This document shows positions 4,902 to 58,843 of a DNA stretch of 64,000 nucleotides, one piece after another. Both the position numbers and the translations under genes were made by a program. This stretch comes from Negaprion brevirostris (Eukaryota). The stretch spans positions 105,937,297-106,001,296 of the forward strand of contig JARDVH010000001.1 in NCBI GenBank assembly GCA_030324005.1, given 5' to 3'. Below the pieces are notes generated by a model. That model was not told where the DNA came from, did not search any database, and saw nothing but the letters and a program-made list of their open reading frames with translations. How positions within the stretch are numbered: the first letter of the stretch is position 1; every line of letters begins with the position of its first letter.

Positions 4902-5251
4902 GTTAGGACATGACAATCATAAAACTGATAGGTATACACAAAATGAATGCATATGATCCTATAGTGAAGACAGTTCAAATGAGTTACAGAAAGACAAACC
5001 TATATAATGCTTTTACAACATTAGTGCATCCTATCACACTTTAAAATCAATGAAATACTACTTGCAGTGTACTCATTGGTGTAAAGCAGAGAACACAACT
5101 GCCAATTTGCACACAGCAAGGCCTCTCGATCAGCATTGTGATCGTTGCCACATAATCTATTTTTAAGAATAAATATTGGTCAGTGCACTGGAGAGTGGTC
5201 CCCTCCTCACCTTTATAAAGCTACAGAGTCCTTCAAGTTCACATGAGTTGG

Positions 5252-7035
5252 TAGAAGGGCCTTGATTATAGTTTCATCTGAGAAGTGGCACCTCCAGCAT
5301 TGCAGCATTCCCTTAGTACCATATTGGTGCGTCATTGATGTTCAGAAGTCTCTGGATTGGGGCTTGGCTACAAGAAAATGATATTTGGAGTAATTTATTA
5401 GGCAAGGTACTGGGGGCAACGATGTTTAGGTTATCCAAAATATAATTGCAAGTCACCATGGTAGACAAAATGGTCTGGTTTGTGAGGAAATTGACATTTT
5501 CTTTTCCCCAGTTGCTTTTATCCCTATTAGGTCAGCTTGGCACAATCTGATCATTGTGAAGATCACAGTGGTGGAATTCATATCTGGCAATATCACAAAA
5601 TGGGCTGTAGTGAACTGACAACTCATTTCACACTCTATCCAATCGTCTTTACCATTTGCCTTTAATAGAAAAGAATATAAGATGGAAACCAATTCTCTGT
5701 CACTCAATTTACATTCCCTTGCAAGATTAACTCCACATTTATTAGGTCCAATCCTGTGGCAACATGCAGGAACATAATCTAGGATGACATCTCTGTGCAT
5801 TCTCTTTAAAGTCTTATCTTTAGACATTAAACTCCTGCCTGCTCTGGTGGATGGAAAAAATAAGAGCAGAGGTTCTTAGTATCTTGGTTGAAATGTATTC
5901 TTCAATCAACATCATCAAAATAGATCGGTCGTTTACTTCATCCCTGTGTATATGACTTGCTGTGAGCAAAATGGTATGTTTACCTGTATAAGAACAATGC
6001 CGGTCACATGCAGGTAAGGATTTTTTGTGCCTCCTGCAGCTTGTTTTGTAGCTGCGGAGGTGGCCTGTTGTTAGATGGCAGCGGGATCTTCTGATCCAAT
6101 CATTGACAGTGGGGTTTCCTGATTTATGCACACATCTCCTTCATCGCCACCAGGAAACTCATGATAGGGGCTGCCGATGGGACCAGAAGATCCCATCGGT
6201 GGGAATGGCTAGAAAATTCCAGCTGTTGTTTCTCTTCCTGCTCCTAGTGTTGTACAAGGCAGGCTTTCATCTGTTCCCACAGGGAGGTTTCTCCTGGGGC
6301 AGGTCCCTAGCTGTGACCAGAAGCTTATAGTTTGCGGGGTGCCATTCCTCATTAAGCATGGCTGTCCTAGGGTCTCTCCCACTCTTACTGCCTGCTACTG
6401 GCATGTGTTGGAAGGATTTCGCAGGTTGATACTCAAACTGTTGGCTACATTATGAATGGTCCTTGGCCATCAAGTCTTGGGATGGGACTCAAATCCAAAG
6501 CTTCTGGTTTAGAGGCAGGGACACTACCCACTGCTCCACATGTTCTCCTAGGTCACATGTTAAAAAGAATTAATTAACCATGAAATGCTTTGGGATATCC
6601 TGAAGATACAAGTAGTACCATATAAATGAGTGTTCCATGTAATTAACTTGAGGTGCTAATGTAACATGACAACGTATGAGTCCTCTAAAACACTTCCATC
6701 TGCAACAGGTTTTTTTCTTGTTTCAAAACATTCCTGTTTGAGAATTAGTTAGAAGTTGAACTTTAAATTACCGTTGTGATAGAAGAGGCTCTGATTATAG
6801 TCTAAAGTGAAAAGTGACACCTCCAACAGTGCAGCAATCCCTCAGTATCATATTGGTGTGTCAGCTGATGTTCACAAGTTTCTGGATTGGGGCTTGGCTA
6901 TGTTTGGAGTAATTTATTAGGCAAGATATTGGAGACAAAGACATTAGGGCCATCTAAAATATAATTCAAGGCCACCATGGTAGAGGGAATGTTTTTGCGG
7001 TCTAAGTAGTGAGGAAATTAACATTCTTCTCCCAT
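5252..7035 (+). repeat. Diverged local direct duplication: ~5252-5510 and ~6780-7035
   Basis: Both copies share SINE sequence plus the same flank TCTGGATTGGGGCTTGGCTA..TTTGGAGTAATTTATTAGGCAAG..AAAATATAATT..CACCATGGTAGA..GAGGAAATT.ACATT. Confidence 0.8.
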
Positions 7036-7371
7036 CATTATTCTTCTCTTCCCATCAATGTCCATAATAATTCTGGATGTCAGGTTCTACTGAACCACTT
7101 CACCATGTAACAGGGTGAAAGGCTTTTTTTGAACATTAGTGTTTTTACCTATAGTTTTTGCCGTAACTAAATGAGAAAAATACAATCGTCTGATGCAACT
7201 TTTTAAACAAAAGTAGACCAATTTTTTTATTAAGGTTCATCTGTCTATATCCATTACAATTCAGTAACCAAAATAAGGTATAAACTTAAAATTGTTACAA
7301 TGCAATGCTTTAGGTCATGGGTTAATGACTTAGGTATATTGTTAAATGTTCAATGATCTTGAAGGGTAGAT

Positions 7372-7673
7372 TGAGTGGCATGTTGGCACGGTGCTTAGCA
7401 CTGTTGCCTCACAAGGACTTGGGTTCGATTCCTGGCTTAGGTCACTGTCTGTTTGGAGTCTGCGTGTTCTCTCACTGTCTGTGTAGGTTTCCTCTGGGTG
7501 GTCCAGTTTCCACACACATTCCAAAAGACGCGCTGGTTAGGGTCATTGAGGGAGACGTTAGCTTGCCCAGTGTACCCAAACAGGTGCTAGAGTGTGGCAA
7601 CTAGAGGATTTTCACAGTAACTTCATTGCAGTGTTAATGTAAGCCTACTTGTGACACTAATAAATAAACTTTA
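7372..7673 (+). mobile_element. tRNA-derived V-SINE (HE1-like)
   Basis: A-box-like TGGCACGGTGCTTAGCAC, B-box GGGTTCGATTCC, V-domain-like GGAGTCTGCGTGTTCTC, tail TAATAAATAAACTT. Confidence 0.85.
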
Positions 7674-9260
7674 AACGGTAGACACTTCACTATTAATTCT
7701 GACCACAAACTGCTCTTGGCTCTCTTCAAAGAGAACAAAACTATCCCTTCAATCTCCTTGACAAGGCTTCTATGATGGACATTAGTTCTGTTCTTCTATG
7801 AATATACTTTCAAGCTCTGACCTGGAACCAAATAGCAAACGTGGATGCTCTTAACTGTCTACCCTCGCAAGAAACAGCACCACAAGAAAGCATCATGTCA
7901 TAATTTTTTTGTGAAGCATTGCCAGTTTTGGCAAAGTAGATCAGAACTGGACAAAGTGAGATCCAATGCTGTCCAAAGTGAGAGAAAAAAATTCTTACCG
8001 GACGGGTAAATTTGCCAGTTTTTGAGGAAATGAAACCATTCTGTACCCTCAAGAATAAATTGAGGTTTCAAGATGGCATCATTCTCTAGAGAGAAAAAAT
8101 AGTACTTCCTCTACCAGTCAGAGAACTGCTCCTGAAATATACAGAGCTCATCTTGACATCACTATGGTGAAGATGCTTGTCAGGAGTTATGTGTAATGCC
8201 CAAGTATTGATGCTGATACCAAGAAACTGGTCAAGTACTGTCAATAGTGCCAAATGTAACAAAGGTGCCTGCTACAGACCCACTGCACCCTTGGGAATGG
8301 TTTGGTCAGCCATGGGTATAAATCCATATTCATTATGTTGGCCCATTTGTTTGTTTTTGCTTGTGATAGATGCACCCTCTAAATAGATTGACATTCTTGA
8401 GGTAAAGTCACCCAAATCACATATTACCATTGAAAGGCTACATCAATGCTTTTCAACTCATGGATTACCTGAAATCTTGGTATCAGATAATGGAACTGTA
8501 TTCACAAGTGCTGAGTTTTACAACTTGACCATGCTCAATGGTATAAAACATATTAGAACTATATCTTATCACCGAGACAGCTGTCCAAACTTTCAAGTCT
8601 GGCCAAAAGAAATTGTCAGGGGAACATTGGAGACCAAAATCTCATGATTCCTCTAAATTTACTATATCATTCCACATGCAACAAAGGGAATTCCACCAGC
8701 GGAGCTCCTAACGAAATGTCATCTCAGAACTGAGACTGAACCTCGTGTCTACGAATTTGCCAACGAGGGTAGAAACCAGCCACAGTAATCAGAAAACAAG
8801 CCATAATTTTCATGGTAAATGAAACCATACATGTGAGAAACTTTGGTAGTGGATCAAGTTTGATCCCCGGAATTATTGTCTCTAAGACCGGACCCCTTTC
8901 ATACCAAGTAGACATGGTGGGACAGATCATTCATAAACATGTGGACCACTTAAAGAGTGAAGAGATGCTCCAGCAGTCAGAGCTGCCATCAAGAAATGCT
9001 TTCAAGCTTGTAATCACTAAACCACCCGGTTGCCCTTTTATCGATATAACTGATGTCTCCATGAACGCAAATAGAGATGAATCGCCTGTGCCAGAAGAGA
9101 TATGCATTATTGCATTTACTGTTAACATCGATCCTGTGGAATCATCTCAGACTATAAGTTATACTGCTCTACAAGGAATAGAAAACCCCCTTAAAAACTT
9201 GATTTATAATTGTACAACTTATATACATAATGCTTAGTTAATTTTTTGGACTGAGAGAAG
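7674..9260 (+). mobile_element. Degenerate Ty3/Gypsy LTR-retrotransposon pol remnant (RNase H C-terminus and integrase)
   Basis: Frame-shifted motifs GRHFTINSDHK (RNase H), QIANVDAL, HPWEW, FSTHGLPEILVSDNGTVFTSAEF and NGIKHIRT (integrase core), and VSKTGPLSYQV..HKHVDHL (integrase C-terminus, ORF 8812..9237). Confidence 0.88.
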
Positions 9261-17659: not shown

Positions 17660-18660
17660 CATTTCATTTGTCGGACATGGACATCACTGACTAGGCCAGC
17701 ATTTATTGCCCTAGTTGCCCTTGAGAAAGTAGTGGTGAACTGTCTTCTTGAAACGCTGCAGCCCAGGTGCTGCAGGTTGACCCACAATGCCATCAGGATT
17801 TTGACTCCGTGATTGCGAAGGAACACCATACATTTCCAAGTCAGGATTGTGACTGGTTTGGAGGGAAACGTGCAGGTGATGGTGTTCCCATGTATCTGAT
17901 ATCTTTGTCTTTCTAGGTGGAAATGGTCATGGGTTCTGGTAGACAGTACACATTGCTGCAACTAATCATTGATGGTGGAGGGAGTGGATATTTGTGAATG
18001 AGATGCCAATTAAAAAGGCTGCTTTGTCCTGGATGGTGTCAAGCTTTTTGAGTGTTGTTGGAGCTGCACCTACCCAGGCAAATGGGGAGTATTCCATCAC
18101 ACTCCTGACTTGTAGATGGTGGATCTGCTTTTGGGAATCAGGAAGTGAGTTACTTGCTGCAGTTTCCCTGGCCTCTGACCCGCTCTGATAGTCACTGTCC
18201 TTATGTGGCAAGTCCAGTTGAGTTCCTGGTCAATGGTAACCCCAAGGATGTTGACAGTGGAGGATTCAGCGATGGTGACATCATTGAATGACAAAGAGCT
18301 GTAGATAGAGTGTCTCTTATTGGTGATGGTCATTGCCTGGTATTTGTGTAGCATGAATGTTACTTGCCATTTGTCAGCCCAAGCCTTCACGTTGTCCAAA
18401 TTTTGTTGTATTTGAACATGGACTGCTTCAGTGTCTGAGGAGTCATGAATAGTGCTGAACATTGTGCAATCATCCGCCAACATGCACACTTCTGTCCTTA
18501 TGATGGAGGGAAGATCATTGGTGAAGCAGCTGAAGATGGTTACACCTAGGACACTACCCTGAGGGACTCCAAATGTCCTGCAGCCAAGAAAACTGACCTT
18601 CCACAACCATCTTCCTACGTGCCAGGTATAACTCCAGCCAGCAGAGAGTCTTCCCCTGAT
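17660..18660 (-). mobile_element. LINE (CR1/L2 clade) reverse-transcriptase C-half and 3' end
   Basis: ORF 18097..18606 has GVPQGSVLG, ADDCT and WADKWQVTF; ORF 17966..18211 has VRSVMEY..W. Confidence 0.9.
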
Positions 18661-19971
18661 CCAGTGACACAGATTCAGAAGAGACAGGGTGTGTTCAGTG
18701 TGAGTCAGAAAAAGAAGACAATGATTTTTAAGATGAGAAGAGAATCAGCAATGCTAATGGGACAGTAGTTAACTGAATAATTAGTTATGGAACTCAGTAA
18801 AATGACCAGTTTAGCTGAGATACTACCAGGTAATGTTTAAAAGTTTAGTAAACTAATTGCTTTGCAATTGTAGAAACAGTGAGTTCAGAGGCAAAAAAAT
18901 GCTGAAAATTTTCAACAGATCTGATAGCATCAATAAAGGGAGAACGGAGCCAACTTTGAGTCTGGGTGTACCTTCGTCAGAGCTGAGTTTAGGTGCAATT
19001 TCTGGGTGTGTTGGGGAGAAATGTGAGTTGGGTGAGAAGTATGAAGTGAATGCTCAAGATTTCACTGGAAGAAAACTGTTTGCAGCTGCACTAGTCCCAG
19101 CGAGAAGCCCTGTGTCAAGCTGGGCTAAAGCTTCACTGGTTTATGCCTCTACAAAGATATTGCGTGAGTAGAGGAACAGTGAGAATTTGAATCGTCTTCT
19201 TGTGATCTTTCCAACCTTATTGTCTCGTGCATTTAGGGTAGGTTGCTGAATGAGAAACCAAACGGCAAGGATGGACAGGTCCCTTTTCTCGGATTAATAA
19301 GAACACGTCAGTGGATTTATTATGGACAAGGGGGAGGGCAAGGTAGCTTCAATAGGATATCAAGAAGTCAAAGTGATTAATTTTGCAATAAGGCAGCAAG
19401 AAGATTTTGACAGCTATTAAAATACTTCAAAATGTTGAAAATAAGTAAGTGGTATTCACACAGGGGGTTAATTTTACAAATTTGTGATCATAATATGGGG
19501 TTCACCACTGGGTTCACAAATTTGGGAGTGGAGCAAGCACCCAACAGATTTCTGGTCAATTCCCAAAACAGTCTTCTGGTGGGTGAAGTTGCAAACCGTT
19601 TACACAAACATGCAAGATGCCCCGACATAATACCATTTTATGTTCTACATTATTGAATTCAAGTTGAAATGATTCACGTTTCTGACCAGCCATTACAACA
19701 ACCAACTGCTTCAACCACTGTAAAACTGCCCCCCTGATTTCGCCAATTTCCAAAATGAACAGGTCTACTTGTGTTCAAGTTTTAAAAGGTTCCTCTGTTA
19801 TCCACAGCTGGATGCTGAGGTTGTATTGTGTGTGCAGTACAATAGGGCAGAACACTGGAGCTTGCATCATACAACATATTTGTGTAAGCATTTGTAAGGC
19901 ATTTAAATACATTGCCCACTTTTGAGTGGATGTATCCTGAGCCAGTCTTGGTGGAAAAGGGAGATGCAGAG

Positions 19972-35639: not shown

Positions 35640-35895
35640 CAACGAGGATGTGGCAGAGGGAAGCAGCAAGCTGGAGGATTGAGGAAAGAAGGGGCAAAGC
35701 AGATGAGATGGTGAGCTGGAGAGGCAAATGGCAGGAAAGCAGGGAGTGGTGACTAGCAGGAGAGCGGGGAGAGGCAAGCTGCGGGAGAGCAGGAAGATGC
35801 GAACGGTGGGACAGCAGGAAGACGCAAGCGGCGGGAGAGGCGAACGGCCAGAGAGTGGAGAAAGATGAGTAGCTAGAAAGCCAGGAGAGGTGAGT
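35640..35895. repeat. Purine-rich low-complexity region / degenerate minisatellite
   Basis: Recurring GGAGAGGC(A/G)A and GCAGGAAGA units. Confidence 0.55.
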
Positions 35896-43640: not shown

Positions 43641-45003
43641 GCTTTCAAAGATCCTCTGTTAATTTTATCTACATATTAGATATTAAGAACATAGAAAATG
43701 GTTTGGAAACATATTTTTGAACTTGTTTTAAACCTAACAAGAGGAAAACAAATCAGCAGCTGCATTTTAAAAATCAGATTGAGGATTTCAAGTGAAAATG
43801 AATAAGACATTTCTTGCTACAAGTTTCCCAAATTTCATGACAGGCNNNNNNNNNNTGCTAAATGCAATTAAATCTTTCAATGGTCTGTGCCAATTAGAGT
43901 CTTTGTAAAGTCATTTTCAGGTACCTCACTTACTTCATCTTGTCAATTCCTTGTCCAATAAAAACAAGTAGACACAATACACATTACAATTCAATGCAGT
44001 GTCTCTCTACTAATTACCTTGCAAGCATCAATACTCCAGAGATTACAAATTTGCAGAGTTTGTAAGTAATTCAGTGTTGGGTAATTTAAACTGCTAACAG
44101 AAGATTCAGAACAAGATAGGATATAAAGGAACTTATTCAGAACAAGACAGCAATCTTTGACTTCTGCCCAAAATATATGTAAAGTTGCTGAAGGAGACAC
44201 ACGGAGCCAAATTTCCTTGTTCCAAAATGAAAGTGGGAATTGGCAAAATTGAGGCTGTGGGACTGTAAATTTGAATTTTCCCCTCAAAAAGAGCCCACAC
44301 ATAGGCAGGAAAAGATTCAGAAGGGGTTCAGATTGTGGCATCCTGCAACATCGGAGTTGTCACTGACATGCCACAAGAAATTTGTATTTAATGTCTTACA
44401 GCATTTTCATCAGGTCAGGCAGGCTTTGAAAGTCTTTGGGAAACCCATTAGACAAGAGAGTTTGGGAACACACTGAAGAGTCACAAATATTTGGCATGCA
44501 AGTTTAAAATGATTTGCCAACTTCAATATCATTATTAGATGCTGTCTTCTATATTAGATGGGTTTTTATTACAGAGATTGATCTTAGAATCCTATCTTGA
44601 AAATGTAAGGTGACCTTTATCGCAAACATCATTGCACAAGTGTGAGCTGCAATGAATAAATTTTCCCATTGGAAACAGCGGTATTGTGTGTTTAAAACTG
44701 TATACAACAACGCTTGGAACCCTCCCAACATGATCTGAGCCGGGGTTTCAATGTCCAGAATGCATTAACGTAGGGTAAAAAAACAACCACCTGCTTCACT
44801 CCTTTGATTGACAGGCTACCTCCTTTGAAATGGGAAAAATGTTCTTTCAGTTTCAAGAGACTGAAGCAACATGAGGCAGAATTAGATTAATGAGGGGTGA
44901 GGCTCAGGACATAAGAATCATGTGGAGACTAGGCTGATATCTCAAAAATGGTGACTACTTTTCAGTATTTACACAAACATATTAATTACTTAAGTACACT
45001 CAC

Positions 45004-45137
45004 CTTCTTACAGCTCACTGGTTGGCATTCTGCAACGTAGCACTGCACCTCACCATTACTGCAGACACATTTTGAACATTCAGCCGTGTTCCAGTCTTCA
45101 CCATCCCTGTACATTCTTCCCTCAAATACACATGATT
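45004..45137 (-). CDS. FRAS1: FRAS1 coding exon (~exon 6): (E)SCVFEGRMYRDGEDWNTAECSKCVCSNGEVQCYVAECQPVSCKK
   Basis: tag|AA acceptor, AAG|gtgagt donor, 134 nt, phase 1-0; matches recalled human PCSYEGHVFQDGEDWRLSRCAKCLC. Confidence 0.95.
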
Positions 45138-45940
45138 CTATTCATAAAGACAATCGATACAAACAAATGAGCAGCATGAGAAACAATGTGTGAAATTTGC
45201 TGTGGCCCTATCATTTTGCCTGCACTTGAACACATTTCCATCTGAAAGGTATTAAAACCAGACTTCATTTAAATAACATTTTGTTTGCTTAGGACATCCC
45301 AATGGAGCTTCACAGTCAATTAATTAAATGGTTACTGGCGTGATGCACATAAATTGTGCAACTAATTTTCACACAGCGAGGTCCCACAAACAACAGATGA
45401 GTTGAATGGCCAATTAATTTGTATTCCATGATGTTTATAAATGAATGCCTGCTACGAGAGTTGGTGAACCTCCCTGTTCTTTAAATTGTACCATGGGATC
45501 TTTTATCTGCATCTAAACAGGTATACAGGGCTTCTTTTTATCATCACATCCAAGAGGCAGTACTTCAAACTATATGGCATTCCCTCAGTGCCAGTCTAGA
45601 TTACGTGCTTAAATCCTGAGTAAGCTTTCAATTGGCAACCATCTAACTCTGTGGCAAGAGTGCTATGCAGTAAGACGAGCTGCCCCTAAAAGCAGACAAA
45701 GAAAATATCACAAAGATCTCAAGTTTTCTATCCTTTTGACAACTTTTGCTGCATAAGCCTTCACATATCATAATACTTCACGTTTACACAAGAATTAAGA
45801 AGGAAATAAAGTGAAACAATGTGACAATATGGCTCAGACAATGATAGGCCAGATGGCCTACTTCCATTCTGTAAATTTTCATAGTTTCTATGCGACGGTT
45901 AACTGACAACAATCAGAGACACAAAAACTTGTTGGCTTAC

Positions 45941-46100
45941 CTCCAGTCTTGACACATTTTGGACAGCAGTCTCCATCTGGGGTGTATGTTACTTCCCCAC
46001 TCCCACAGGAAATGGGGGAACAATATTTTGAGCCACATTCAACTTTATTGTTGATGCAGGAACACACACCACACTTTGAGGTCGTCCACTCTGTCTCATG
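45941..46100 (-). CDS. FRAS1: FRAS1 coding exon (~exon 5): HETEWTTSKCGVCSCINNKVECGSKYCSPISCGSGEVTYTPDGDCCPKCVKTG
   Basis: tttttggcag|CAT acceptor, G|gtaag donor, 160 nt, phase 0-1; VWC cysteine pattern. Confidence 0.95.
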
Positions 46101-47229
46101 CTGCCAAAAAAAAGCAGAAATCAGGAGTCACCATTAAATCTAAATTACAATAAATATCTTCACTGAAAATTTTTATCCTCATTCGGGTTTGGGATCCTCT
46201 GGTGCCATTCAAAGCAAATGGAGTTTTGGCNNNNNNNNNNTTTAATGCCAAATTCTCCATTCTCACTTGCAGTATGATGGCCACGACCAAGGTTAGAAAA
46301 TCCCACTCCTGGTAGCCATTAATTTGAAACTACACTTGCTGACGTTTGTACATTTAACTTCTGAGTTCCTGTTGACTTTGAGCTACTCTATTACAGTGGA
46401 AATCTCAGATATCCATACTCCAGCAATTGACTCTTCTATCATCATTTTGACATTTTCATATTTTCATAGATTTTGACATCAAAGTCTTATTTTTTTAATA
46501 ATTTAGAGTCCAAAACGGCAATTTCCACTCAGTGTTATACACATGGCACTAATGCAGCTTTGAAATGCTTACAATGCTACAATGTTATGTTATGAAAATG
46601 ATTGTAAAAAATACCTGTTTCAAAAATGACAACAAATGAATCAAAAAGTAAGTAAGTGGAACACATGTTGCAAATCAGTTTTTTTTCTATTCATTGGTGG
46701 AACGTCCACAACACTGGTTGCACCAGCATTTCTTGTCCATTCCAAATTGCCCTTGAACAGAATGACTTGCTAAGCCACTCCAGAGGGCATTTAATGTTGG
46801 TCTGGAGTCACATGTAGGCCAGAGCAGGTAAGGATGACATAATAATGAACCAGATGGATTTTTACGACAGTGGTTTCATTGTCATCATTAAACCTTTAAT
46901 TCAAATTTCACCATCTGGCATGGGATTTGAACCCAGATCTCCAGAGCATTATTGCCCTATGTTTTGGGATTACTAGTCCAGTGATAATACTACTGTTCCA
47001 CCGCCTCCCCTAACAAATAATTACATGTCAAGGAATTACAACATTCTATAATTCCTTATTGGGATTTACATGTTGCAATACACCCATCAGCAACATTCAC
47101 TTCATTATCTATGTTATCTGTTCTGTTTACCATAATGGTTTCTGCTTTACTGAGACTGCATGTGTATGTGAGATGGGGCTTCTTTTTATCAAACAAAACA
47201 GAAAATGCTGTAAATAATCAGCAGGTCTG

Positions 47230-47625
47230 TACTGATGGAATGCTGCACTGTTAGGGAAGTAGCCTTTTGAATAAAAGTTATTTTCCAGCATTTTCTCTTC
47301 AGGTTTCAGCTTCTGGATAAGGTGTTAAATAAGATCTCTTCAGTCTCTCAGGTAGGTATAAAAGGTAACATGGCATGATTTCATAGAAGGGTGGGGGGTG
47401 TTCTTCCTTGTGTTCGGAAGAATAATCATGCTTGACCAATATCACTGAAACAGATTTTTCTGATCATTATTTCATTGCTGTCTGTGGAATCTTTTGAACG
47501 GACAAACTTGCTTCTGTGTTTCCTACATCTAAAAATGAATGCACTTCAAAAATAGTTAATTGGCTGCAAAGCACTTTGAAGCATCCTGAAAGGATAAAAA
47601 GTGCTGCAAAAATGCAAGTATTTCT
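47230..47625 (+). mobile_element. DeuSINE (SacSINE1/AmnSINE1-like); related copies at ~5030-5380(-), 5840-6000 and 6550-6630(+), 27290-27600(-), 45290-45680(-)
   Basis: GGAATGCTGCACTGT..TCATTATTTCATTGCTGTCTGTGG..CTGTGTTTCCTACAT..GCACTTCAAAAATAGTTAATTGGCTG.AAAGCACTTTG resembles the Deu-domain SINE core and tail. Confidence 0.65.
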
Positions 47626-47689
47626 TTAATTTTTACCCCACTGGAAAAGAAATAAAGTGACTGAATAGGGGTGTTGCAAATCCACAAGA

Positions 47690-48450
47690 ATCTTCATATT
47701 GCTCCCCGACATCGTTGACAGGCATAAGAACAGGTACCACATGTATTGCAACACAACCCAGTTCAATCTCCCCACTGCAACAATTATCAACATTCAGACT
47801 TGACAAACAAAATCCTTCAGCTTTGGGTCCTCCCACCATCAATTCCAACTCCCTCATCGAACATCAGATTGATTGCAAACTCGACAAACTATTTGATCCT
47901 GATTATCTCATCAGTCAGAGTTCCAAATGTGTATTTCTTTGTCAATGTTTTCAGGATGGCCCTGTAAGATTGTCTTGATTAATCTGCTGTTTGTTCTGTT
48001 GAACTTCATCGCATATCTGTCGAGGATTGTATTTTGTACTGGAAGACAGATACTCTCAAACTTCTTTTTCCTCCTTTATCTGGAAAGCAAGCAACCCAAA
48101 TTTCTTAATTGAGTCTGGGCCCACTAAGTTTAATAAGATGTACACTTGTACCGTTTTTGACTTGTCGGACAATGCAGCGCTGCAGGAAATATGTTACTTC
48201 CTTTTGAACTTTCCCCAGCTATCAAAGATGAATGGGTTGATGTGGCAAAGTTCTTATGCCGTAAAGCCAACTCCCAACACCATGTGAATGTGTTGGGTTC
48301 CTGAATCACTAACAATAGTGACTTGTAACAAAGGATAGTTTATTCAATAGCTTAATAACTACTTCATGCTTGTACTCTGCCTACACTCCTGGGGGGTAAG
48401 ACCCATGCCCCCGACATGTGATCTTTCTGGAGCTACGTCAACATGTGACC
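47690..48450 (-). mobile_element. Degenerate Gypsy-type gag remnant
   Basis: Minus-strand pieces KKFESICLPVQN and FGTLTDEII(R)DQIVC resemble Gypsy gag; many frameshifts. Confidence 0.55.
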
Positions 48451-48987
48451 ACTCAACCTACAGTCAGTTTTCAAAGAAAAAGAACTATTCCAGGAAAGTA
48501 CAGATTTTAAGCCACTTAGAAGGGTCAGAGTAACATATTTTCTTACTTTGTTGATTGTGGAATAAAGCTGTTTAACAATTTATATCTAATATTTAAAATT
48601 GTGTTACTTCATCTGCCTTTCAGAGGATTGAGAAAGTGCATACAAGAAGGTCATGGCATTGTGTTCAGATAAGAAGACTGTCTTGTTATTACATCACCTG
48701 CAGGTTTTGTTATCATTGATTTAAATAGTGGGTAGCAAGAGCAAACTTTAGCACCAGGGATACAGGGAAGACGAATGACTAACTGGGGAGTAGACCTGAG
48801 TAGCAGCCATTTACAAATACACTGTTAGAATATTTTCAGTTATCTCAAACATATGAAGTTAGCACAGGGTCAGTGTTGCATTTCCCATATGGGCAAGCTC
48901 AGTGCTGTAGTATTATCTGGGGCTTTAAACTAATGTAGTCGAAATCAGTCGAAAGGCTGGCATAGAGATTGCACAAAGAGCTTCAAT

Positions 48988-49312
48988 TCATAGAATCCTA
49001 TAGTGCAGAAGGAGGCCATTCGGCCCATCAAGTCAACTACCGATCACAATCCCATCCAGACCCTATCTCAACAACCCCATGCATTTACCCTAGCTAGTCC
49101 CCCTGACACTAAGGGGCAATTTAGCATGGACAATCTACCTAACCGGCGCATCTTTGGACTGTGGGAGTAAACCGGAGCACCCGGAGGGAACCCACACAGA
49201 CACGAGGAGAATGTGCAAACTCCACACAGACAGTGACCCAAGCTGGGAATTGAGCCTGGGTCCCTGGTGCAGTGAAGCAGCAGTGCTAACCACTGTGCCA
49301 TCGTGCCACCCC
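48988..49312 (-). mobile_element. Full-length tRNA-derived V-SINE (HE1-like)
   Basis: Reverse complement of GGTGGCACGATGGCACAGTGGTTAGCACTGCT..GGCTCAATTCCC..GTGTGGAGTTTGCACATTCTCC and CR1-like tail. Confidence 0.9.
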
Positions 49313-50302
49313 TTTTCTTGTTTCTGCTTATGTGCGTTACTGATTGTTTAAGACTGACTACGACGTATGATGAACATCTCTTCCTTTGATGACAATGCAT
49401 ATTTACATAAATATAATCATTTGGTTTTATCCAACATATTATCTTAATATACAAACCAATATACTATCACAACATTCCTGTTCCCTTAAATAAAAGATCT
49501 TTATAGTTCAACACTAATGTGTACACAAGTAGGTATCCCTTGTGGAGTAAAAAAAATCATGTCAGCCATTGTTTACATAGAACATTCAGCTGTAACAGAA
49601 TTACTTGGAATACCACTCACCATGTTACTGTTTCTTTATTTCTGAATACTGTTTGATCTGATTGGTCTCCCTTTAAATGTTGGAACAGGAGGCCTGAGTT
49701 GCATATTGCCCTGTTTCCTGCAGTATTGAGATACTACATCTATGTTGGGGTTGTCTTTGTGCTGATGGGGTTTACGAGCCACAATGGGAATACTGGACAA
49801 TGGCAGCAACTGCTCTTCATTCCGGTTGGGCTTTTTAATGGATGTGCTCGTATCTCTATAGATGACAAACTGGATTGAATCAGCACTCTGACTCAACAAA
49901 GGATTTCTATCACACAGATTCAAACTTGGTGCTGTTTCTATAGTTCAGCCTGTCTGACTAATTGAACTGCCTTGAATAAAGTTATCTCTCCTCTGGACTG
50001 CAAAAAAAACAGATAAAGCTTCATCAAGCACACCCACCATAATCCAGTCTCAGATCAGTTCATCCTTTGGGCTCTGTCATAAGATTCTGTTGCTGCTTTT
50101 CTCTCTGATTCCTTGCCATAGTTATTTCCTCACTGCTTTATTATCTTTGACTTTTACCAGCTGTTTCATCCAGGATCCTTGAGTAAGGTTACCGCTGTCA
50201 CCATGGAATGTTATCATAAATGGTCCCAGGATGTGGTTATAGGGGATACATTCAAGGATTAGAAGAATTAACGAAGAACTGCAGAATATGACTCTATAAT
50301 AG

Positions 50303-50470
50303 ACAGCACAGTGGCTAGCACTGCTGTCTCACATCACCAGGGACCCAGGTTCAATTCCAGCTTCAGGCTGTGGAGTTTGCACGTTCTCCCCATGTCTGCG
50401 TGGGTTTCCTCCGAGTGCTCCAGTTTCCTACCGCACTCCAAAGATGTGCCGGTTAGGTGGATTGGCCAAG
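50303..50470 (+). mobile_element. V-SINE (HE1-like), 3'-truncated
   Basis: GCACAGTGGCTAGCACTGCTG..GGTTCAATTCC..TGGAGTTTGCACGTTCTCCCC; similarity stops after GGATTGGCCA. Confidence 0.87.
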
Positions 50471-50620
50471 GGGGGTGAATCAGAGAAAAAAGCGGCAACA
50501 GAGTCTCATGACAGACTACAATGCTATTTGACTGAATCAATTAAAATATAAATTTGATTAATGATCTATTGCATTGTCTTAAGCTGAGTAATAAATAATT
50601 TTTTAACATTTCTACAATAG

Positions 50621-50697
50621 GTACTCAAGAGACAAGGATACGATGCAGCCTGTGACATGTGGAGTTTAGGGATTCTACTCTACACTATGCTGGCAGG
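50621..50697 (+). pseudogene. Isolated exon of a p90 ribosomal S6 kinase (RSK/RPS6KA, most like RPS6KA2/3), C-terminal kinase subdomain IX: [26 protein letters not shown]
   Basis: tttctacaatag|GTACTC acceptor, GCAGG|gtaagg donor, 77 nt, no stop; nearly identical to the recalled RSK motif [26 protein letters not shown]; no other kinase exon found in the window. Confidence 0.85.
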
Positions 50698-52099
50698 GTA
50701 AGGCAGCAATTGTTTTCATCAACAGAAAGTACAATTGGCTATCAAGTGGTGAGAGAAATCCAGACATGAAGCAAGAAGTTTTTTTTCTGTCCCTGCCCCC
50801 TCCCTCTCCCTCAGAGTATGAGGTTCTCTGACAGTGGAACTTCAGAGCTCATCCTCCTTACCATATGTCTAACTGAGGAACAAAATAGGGGCACTCTCAA
50901 TGCTGGGAGTAAACTATAGATCCATAAACAGTCAGAGAGCGATAGAAAAGCATGTATGTAGACAAGTTGCTGAGAAAGGGCAGTAAAGTTAAGAGGCTTC
51001 AATTACCCTAATATTTATTGGGATAAATTCAATATAAATGTATTCTAGAAAATATTCGAAGCCACTGCAATAAGAGAAGAAGCAGTTTTAGTCTCGGTTG
51101 AGGGAATGAATCTAGATAGCTGGGAGAACATTTTAATTGCAGTGATCACAATTAAGTTAAATTTACTGCAGTTATGGAAAAAGAGAAATATACCACCAAG
51201 ATTAAAGATTCTTTTTTAGCCACCATTGATGTGATGGGCTGAATGGCCTCCTTCTGTACTGTAACTGTTTTTATGTCTCCCACAACAGCCGTTGAAACAC
51301 AGATATGCCAGGCAGCACTGGGTCACAGTCCTGTGCCCTCAGTGCCCAGCCTGAATATCATTAGCAGAGGGCTTGTCGATATTCAGTGATCGCTAATCCC
51401 TTTAATGGCCATGTGCCTTGCAAACAAATTTTGGAGGACTTACGGAAGCAATTAGTGGGTATTCAAGTGCATTCTTTGAAGAATCAGTATATCCATGAAT
51501 AAGTATGACCCCAGTGCCCACTGAATTACTCTCACTGGCTTTTTGTCTTGTATTTCTTTTGCAAATGACACAAATGTTGAAAGGGTTAGAACCATTATTC
51601 ACACGTATTTGGCAAACTTTATTTGTCAGAGCTACTGAAGTGACGTGCATCTTCTATAGCTGCACACACAAAAGATGCTGAGACTTTGCAACTCTAATTA
51701 GAATTAGTGACATGAAAAAATGAAAATACCAAAGCATTAGATTATCACAAATATTTATAGTTTCTGAAGAGAGAATGTTTCCAGAAAATACTGAAGCTGC
51801 TTTGATAAACGTCCAGATATTCCACACTGGATTGTATCGATGTATCCAAGTGAAGTGTAAATAATGAGTACTCACGAAATTGGCTGAGTGTACCAGGTTT
51901 ATTCAGTGAAATTGTTCATATTGGTGCAACTCCCCATCATCTGTACTGATTAATTTAGTGTTGAGCTCTTCACGTAGCTTTAGCACACAGATGCCCAGAA
52001 GCTGTTTCTGTCATTTAAACAGCGTGCAAATAAACTGTGTAAAAGCCCTTGGCATATTCCACTTCAGATTTCTGTAAACATCCGAAGTGTAGAATCCTC

Positions 52100-52234
52100 T
52101 TCCCTCTCCCCATTCCGCTCGCTCTCTCCTGTCCTGCTCGCTCTCCCCGTTCCTGTCCTGCTCGCTCTCCCCATCCCCGTCCCGCTCACTCTCCCTCCCA
52201 TCCCGCTCGCTCTCCACCCCCGGTCCCCGTCCCC
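52100..52234. repeat. C-rich degenerate tandem repeat (CCTG/CCCG CTCGCTCTCC-type units) running into an N gap
   Basis: Repeated CTCGCTCTCC..GTCC units. Confidence 0.8.
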
Positions 52235-52824
52235 NNNNNNNNNNNNNNNNNNNNNNNNNNNNNNNNNNNNNNNNNNNNNNNNNNNNNNNNNNNNNNNNNN
52301 NNNNNNNNNNNNNNNNNNNNNNNNNNNNNNNNNNAGCCATTCTCTTGTCATCTCTAAATTGGATTATTTCAATGCTCTCTTGATTAGCCCTCCAGTCTTC
52401 ACACTCCATAAAGATCAGTATTCTACTGCCCACATCTTAATATGCAACAAATTATGCTAATCTATCATCTTGCAATGCCTCAAATGTAAAAGTCTCTTTA
52501 CGAATAGAAGTTACTGTTATTGGTGAATGTAATGACAATGGTTTGCCAATATGAAAAGAGTCACTTAGCGTTATAAAGGGAACGTTGGGACATTGCAGTA
52601 TTTTTACATGAAAGCTGACAAGATTAAAGGATAAAAACAGTATTCAAGATCAGGGATGGTAATGGTAAAGAGCAACAGATCATTTTCATGTNNNNNNNNN
52701 NCAGGCACAAATGCAATATTAAATATGCAAATGTTAACATTAAGTGCACATTTTAAATGTGCTCCACTGTTCACCTTGATGCTTGCTTTACCATGAACAC
52801 AACTGTAAATGCGAGGCAGCTTAC

Positions 52825-52917
52825 CCCATGAACCTGCCCCTCATATTCACAGACATTATGGGTCCTCAAGGTACATTCAGGGCAGCAATCATTTGGACTT
52901 ATTTTGAAAACTTCACC
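52825..52917 (-). CDS. FRAS1: FRAS1 coding exon (~exon 4): GEVFKISPNDCCPECTLRTHNVCEYEGQVHG
   Basis: ag|GGT acceptor, GGG|gtaag donor, 93 nt, phase 0-0; CCPEC VWC motif; matches recalled human GEVLQIAANQCCPECVLRTPGSC. Confidence 0.95.
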
Positions 52918-58735: not shown

Positions 58736-58843
58736 CTTCTGAAAATCACACTGAGGATTTTGACACTGGGTAACCGTGCAGAGGACAATATCACTGTGGC
58801 AGCTGCAATCTTGGCAAGAGTCTGGCTTCCAAACAGTATTATT
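58736..58843 (-). CDS. FRAS1: FRAS1 coding exon (~exon 3), VWC1 N-part: NNTVWKPDSCQDCSCHSDIVLCTVTQCQNPQCDFQK
   Basis: Manual reverse-complement translation; cag|AAT acceptor, AAG|gtaat donor, 108 nt, phase 0-0; matches recalled human DATIWKPDSCQSCRCHGDIVICKPAVCRNPQCAFEK. Confidence 0.95.

Follow-up and report, generated by a model that had tools for sequence, protein, structure and literature searches.

An RPS6KA2 Kinase Exon Assembled Within a FRAS1-Like Intron of Negaprion brevirostris Is Very Likely an Assembly Error

Introduction

How did a single exon of an RSK-type kinase gene come to lie antisense in an intron of a FRAS1-like gene in Negaprion brevirostris? The exon was found in a stretch of 64,000 nucleotides (assembly GCA_030324005.1, contig JARDVH010000001.1, positions 105,937,297–106,001,296 of the forward strand), which is called the window here. 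Positions given without a scaffold name are those of the window, which is part of scaffold C1. An earlier note, made from the letters of the window, had offered four origins for the exon: a captured or duplicated genomic fragment, a LINE transduction of pre-mRNA, part of an interleaved antisense gene with very large introns, or a chimeric assembly. In our study, the chimeric assembly was supported by a gap at the home locus of the gene, by the divergence of contigs and by the continuity of a repeat.

Results

The plus-strand segment 50621–50697 was found to contain 77 nucleotides, with a T-rich stretch ending in caatag upstream and gtaagg downstream. Its translation comprised 26 residues with in-frame stops immediately outside on the left and on the right, and the exon started in phase 0 and ended in phase 2. 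The 77-nt plus-strand exon, its T-rich AG acceptor, its GTAAG donor and its open translation, as reported in the earlier note, were all confirmed. Measured against chance in the animal's own genome (2.69 Gb), the exon had an E value of 1.0e-10. The nine best sequence matches in the PDB were RSK2/RSK1 kinase chains (E about 2e-10), and positions 168–193 of the Pfam Pkinase domain were matched, below the whole-protein cut-off since only a single exon was present. The assignment to an RSK C-terminal kinase exon of 77 nt with phases 0–2 was right on the evidence of PDB, Pfam and phase fit. Intron sequence and splice sites were found to flank the exon on both sides; a processed mRNA retrocopy, in which introns are lost and exons fused, was therefore excluded, as the note had argued.

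The segment was identified as coding exon 18 of 21 of RPS6KA2 (RSK3), in the C-terminal kinase domain, the exon numbering being that of the mapping of the basking shark protein P0007. Its peptide, the Met included, was identical at 26 of 26 residues in all 13 elasmobranch RPS6KA2 proteins (seven species), whereas in the Callorhinchus proteins (4/4) the identity was 25/26, with Ile in place of Met; both counts take in cluster members beyond the 120 homologues listed. Among those 120, the Met form was found in three, all named RPS6KA2 and all from cartilaginous fishes. The same 26/26 peptide was present in RPS6KA2 of white shark (P0006), basking shark (P0007), skate (P0008) and the cluster members, and the window exon differed from RPS6KA2 of sharks and rays only in its assembled position. 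The peptides of the three paralogous exons of the genome were 82–88% identical to it. The exon fills residues 571–596 of P0006, the exact stretch absent from scaffold C99. The lack of amino-acid decay had been taken as a sign of a recent event or of selection; the peptide is that of a conserved exon, and decay is absent because this is a working exon of RPS6KA2.

Vertebrates possess four RSK genes. The genome was found to contain four RSK-type copies of exon 18, on C1 (the window), C193, C146 and C106, and the copies on C193, C146 and C106 each sit beside their own neighbouring exons. The genes on C146, C106 and C193, which we take from residue patterns to be RPS6KA1, RPS6KA3 and an RPS6KA6-like gene, shared the same 77-nt exon boundaries where assembled, and 58/77, 49/63 and 57/77 nucleotides, respectively, were identical to the window exon. 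The name of the C106 gene was backed by the RSK2 chain among the PDB matches. In this RSK2-like gene, near 62,767,255 of C106, the first 14 bases of exon 18 were lost to a gap of 1,314 N, and exon 17 had no match anywhere in the assembly. A 480-residue open reading frame on C106 was considered as a retrogene and rejected, being a run of N. Four copies of exon 19 were also found; three adjoin their preceding exon and the fourth was present on C99. A census of eight exon positions in the four RSK genes recovered 31 of the 32 copies, 29 at home and two on foreign scaffolds, with one missing; both copies on foreign scaffolds belong to RPS6KA2. At none of these eight positions, searched genome-wide, was a fifth RSK copy found, nor was any other RSK exon found on C1. 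The segment 50621–50697 is the only copy of RPS6KA2 exon 18 in the assembly. The idea of an extra genomic copy, captured or duplicated, is not supported by this census, with four copies for four genes and no fifth copy across the eight positions.

On the plus strand of C99, 18 of the 21 RPS6KA2 coding exons were collinear, from 33,811,110 to about 34,013,750. Exon 18 was missing, and the interval from exon 17 to exon 19 contains a gap of 7,397 N (33,987,101–33,994,497); a gap in the true RPS6KA locus at this exon had been named beforehand as a sign of misassembly. Residues 571–596 of P0006 were not found in the 200 kb of C99 searched, in which the content of N gaps is unreadable. Residues 179–238 of P0006 (exons 7 and 8) were also missing from C99, with a gap of 9,042 N in that interval. 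These two exons were found on the minus strand of C132 (37,717,333–37,717,647), in a piece of 9,520 bp bounded by a 100-N gap and a 10-N gap, and exon 7 differed from P0007 at one residue (11/12). The C132 piece had no specially close relative in the C99 DNA examined. Exon 6 ends in phase 2, exon 7 runs from 1 to 1, exon 8 from 2 to 0 and exon 9 starts in 0; similarly, exon 17 ends in phase 0, exon 18 runs from 0 to 2 and exon 19 opens with one base. Compared at exons 6–9 and 17–19, the splice phases of RPS6KA2 thus interlock across three scaffolds (C99, C132 and the window on C1). Exons 7 and 8 are a replicate of the case of exon 18, being missing from C99 at an N gap and interlocking in phase. 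Exon 18 of the window is native RPS6KA2 because it is present in a single copy, its home locus has a gap and its phases fit.

The part of the C99 locus examined contained 22.7% N. Direct sequence overlap between the flanks of the C99 gap and the window was looked for and none was found, and a search for an unplaced contig bridging either the window locus or the C99 locus found none. No match to the N-termini of the long isoforms of a manta ray was found in the 140 kb of C99 upstream. Exon 20 of RPS6KA2 (near 34,008,930–34,009,070 of C99) is followed by a GC donor instead of GT, and the intron is likely of the GC-AG type.

As assembled, the kinase exon lies antisense between two minus-strand VWC exons, 52917–52825 and 46100–45941, which join in phase 0. 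The downstream exon (45941–46100) matched Pfam VWC with an E value of 2.1e-8 and has splice sites. The upstream exon (52825–52917) gave a weak E value of 0.6 with a purpose-built VWC profile and has AG/GT sites and the phase-0 join; the next exon upstream (58736–58843, minus strand) gave 4.4e-6 with such a profile and has splice sites. The VWC exons and further Cys-rich host exons were collinear with the sturgeon protein P0121, which contains VWC and Cadherin_3 domains. In FRAS1, the VWC domains are described as N-terminal, with furin-like and CSPG-like repeats after them (PMC10095167). The VWC and Cys-rich architecture, on which we base the name, fits a FRAS1-like gene. No homologue named FRAS1 was among those returned for the host gene, a homologue search with window 45942–46103 returned nothing, and the Atlas clusters for the host exon were generic VWC only, below 0.9. 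Titles and abstract openings in the literature gave no genomic link between RPS6KA2 and FRAS1.

In a tblastn search with full-length RPS6KA2, the window had no RSK exon besides this one, in agreement with the note's remark that the neighbouring exons were missing, and none was found in 264 kb of C1 that began 60 kb to the left of the window and ended 140 kb to its right. The window contained 13 N gaps. Decayed fragments of an integrase core (8387–9234, plus strand, Pfam rve E 1.7e-5) and of a reverse transcriptase (18100–18744, minus strand, RVT_1 E 6.1e-12) were present in introns of the FRAS1-like gene.

Contigs, not raw reads, of four of 24 runs (X1, X5, X7 and X12) were aligned on 44300–49000. 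The contigs of the FRAS1 side and those of the RPS6KA2 side were found to overlap by 22 bp at 47881–47902, which we mark as the false junction. In all four runs, the right-side contigs begin at 47881 or 47884, preceded by foreign letters (106 in X1, 177 in X12, 267 in X5 and 254 in X7). The left-side contigs end at 47902 in two of the four runs, with non-matching letters beyond (2,062 in X5 and 630 in X7); that of X1 ends at 47876 and the one listed for X12 at 47773. No contig bridging 47881–47902 was found among the 32 pieces listed for the four runs. The junction 21-mer occurred once in the assembly. X1 was the run most like the window: of its eight listed pieces one was a short repeat match, and the other seven differed from the window at a single place. 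The contig depth of X1, a poor measure of copy number, was 6.2–6.3 right of the junction and 6.4–7.8 left of it; by this weak measure there was no doubling over 47881–48958. X12 bears the same organism label as X1 and differs from the window at about 2–3% of sites, with variants common to X5 and X7; more than one species may bear this label.

Two other positions had been candidates for the breakpoint. The 10-N gap at 46231–46240 was rejected, since a repeat aligns across it without missing bases and an X7 contig bridges 45660–46300 with the 10 letters left out; the gap has zero true length and the join is genuine. A 10-N gap of this kind does not necessarily stand for lost or mis-joined sequence in this assembly. 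The earlier note proposed as the left breakpoint a SINE that ends near 50470, but the break was found about 2.6 kb further left, at 47881–47902. This truncated SINE-like repeat (50305–50468, plus strand), for which V-SINE is the name used in that note, had many matches of 77–82% in the stretches examined.

The displaced piece begins within an old interspersed repeat, of which the copies are about 70% alike. Its 3′ part was present at 47878–48484 (plus strand), and the DNA at the left edge of the C99 gap is its 5′ part. With window 47620–47960 as query, all 28 other copies found begin to match at 47872–47886. Further 5′ sequence absent from the window was shared by four of six copies examined and not by two; the truncation alone proves little because in those two the match breaks off there as well. 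Window 47878 onward and the left edge of the C99 gap were found to match the same repeat copies, and in 12 of 12 other copies the C99 edge was followed on the same strand by window 47881 onward. The spacing between them was 242, 243, 251, 256, 266, 268, 280, 282, 284, 356, 378 and 632 bp, that is, 242–284 bp in nine of the 12. Seven of these copies were picked because both match lists contained them; the other five came only from the C99 list and had spacings of 251, 266, 280, 282 and 356 bp. The two longest foreign contig heads, 254 and 267 nt, were similar in size to the spacing.

As a control, 249 gap edges in the stretches examined were compared with the template copy and five matched, of which only the edge of the 7,397-N gap ends just 5′ of the junction. 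Of the remaining four, one belongs to this same C99 fragment, at its opposite end, and three align elsewhere in the template. Against the 12 repeat copies, window 46700–47877 gave one match of 35 bp and the C99 right flank gave none. A local collapse inside the FRAS1 intron at 47881–47902 was rejected, since a single repeat leads from the edge of the C99 gap into 47881 onward.

A second repeat, at 49614–50239 (plus strand), had its closest relative in the genome on C99 at 33,722,152, a position 89 kb upstream of RPS6KA2 exon 1. Their alignment had 641 columns at 83% and an E value of 3.8e-183; the next-best copy had an E value of 9e-44. The two sequences (49614–50239 and C99:33722152–33722787) were 83% alike, compared with about 70–75% for most other copies of this low-copy repeat, a degree of likeness that suggests a local duplication or a local hop near RPS6KA2.

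The displaced RPS6KA2 segment, with part of intron 17, exon 18 and part of intron 18, would extend from 47881 to 52234 on the plus strand, up to 4,354 bp, if its right end is taken from the N gap. No second near-identical copy was found in the assembly for the parts of this segment searched. About 265 bp together with 4,354 bp fits within the 7,397 N of the C99 gap. A pyrimidine-rich tandem repeat with units of 21–24 bp (52117–52215) closes the piece, just before a 100-N gap (52235–52334), which likely hides the right junction. A similar tandem array with units of 25 bp was present at 35759–35839.

Discussion

In our study, the kinase exon inside the FRAS1-like intron was judged not to be a real feature. 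Very probably, the assembly mis-joined into FRAS1 a stretch of RPS6KA2, at most 4.35 kb long, with exon 18 and sequence of introns 17 and 18, and the placement of the exon in this intron is very likely an assembly error and not biology. The link of the piece to C99 consists of repeat continuity and lengths, with no read or contig joining the two among the data examined; the run contigs covered 44300–49000, to the left of exon 18 and of the right junction. In the animal, the piece would sit on the C99 chromosome about 250–280 bp right of 33,987,100, and exon 18 would be joined to exons 17 and 19 by ordinary cis-splicing. Intron DNA of FRAS1 and intron DNA of RPS6KA2 may share a word of about 22 bp, at which the assembly would have merged them (47881–47902). 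Such a short-overlap merge could have occurred during contig building or gap closing, and scaffolding would then have put the chimeric contig with FRAS1, so that a hole remained on C99. At least 2 kb of the true FRAS1 intron would be missing from the assembly, presumably behind the 100-N gap.

A private DNA-level duplication, in which RPS6KA2 intron 17–exon 18 entered the FRAS1 intron through 22-bp microhomology and the two copies were collapsed with a gap left on C99, is very improbable in our judgement. It likewise predicts that a single copy would be assembled and that the source locus would have a gap, and a 22-bp overlap is what microhomology-mediated repair leaves, so the overlap at the junction fits it; the source individual may also lie outside the four runs, and the exon is beyond the stretch over which run contigs were aligned. 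However, the junction was seen in none of the four runs, and X1 carries 106 foreign letters through it without a contig break or a doubling of depth. Exons 7 and 8 on C132 would demand a second independent event in the same gene. No second copy that might be the parent of a duplicated or captured exon was found in the assembly, apart from a collapsed one that the gap might hide. If the duplication were true, it would be exon shuffling at its very start in a shark or ray, and the parent copy would lie out of sight within the C99 gap.

Either of two further readings, a LINE transduction of pre-mRNA or an RSK gene that overlaps FRAS1 on the opposite strand by way of very large introns, is less probable still, even though the splice sites are intact and the strand is opposite to that of FRAS1. 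The 264 kb of C1 without another RSK exon, together with at most four copies at each of the eight positions and no other on C1, refutes the overlapping gene. A LINE transduction would leave the donor copy in place, and its start would not be expected to fall inside a repeat of which the remaining half is at the edge of the donor gap. A real translocation or cut-and-paste, by which the exon left C99 and the gene was either broken or trans-spliced from three chromosomes, deserves hardly any credence. It would agree with an exon that is absent from the C99 sequence and has kept its splice sites and its reading in the new position, but the N gaps of C99 are big enough at both missing sites, the contigs of X1 and of other organisms leave the window at the junction, and seven other elasmobranchs have full-length RPS6KA2 proteins with exon 18, each from one contig.

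Under the mis-join, the exon is an ordinary piece of RSK3 without biological import, and the assembly spreads one gene over three chromosome-scale scaffolds. Annotation of this assembly would yield an RPS6KA2 in which both kinase domains have deletions, and a false gene decay could be read from it. For other finds of an orphan exon in an intron of this genome, the copies should first be counted against the paralogues and the home locus checked for an N gap.

A comparable case is described for an older platypus assembly, in which VTG2 was spread over three scaffolds with one piece in an intron of Calpain-13; the placement was corrected by long reads, and about 5,000–8,000 mis-joins are given there for short-read assemblies (bioRxiv 10.1101/2020.05.22.110833). 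RPS6KA2 here resembles VTG2 as described there, as a gene over three scaffolds with a piece inside the intron of an unrelated gene. The platypus case included a false exon duplication, whereas the RPS6KA2 piece is present in a single copy and its junction is placed to 22 bp.
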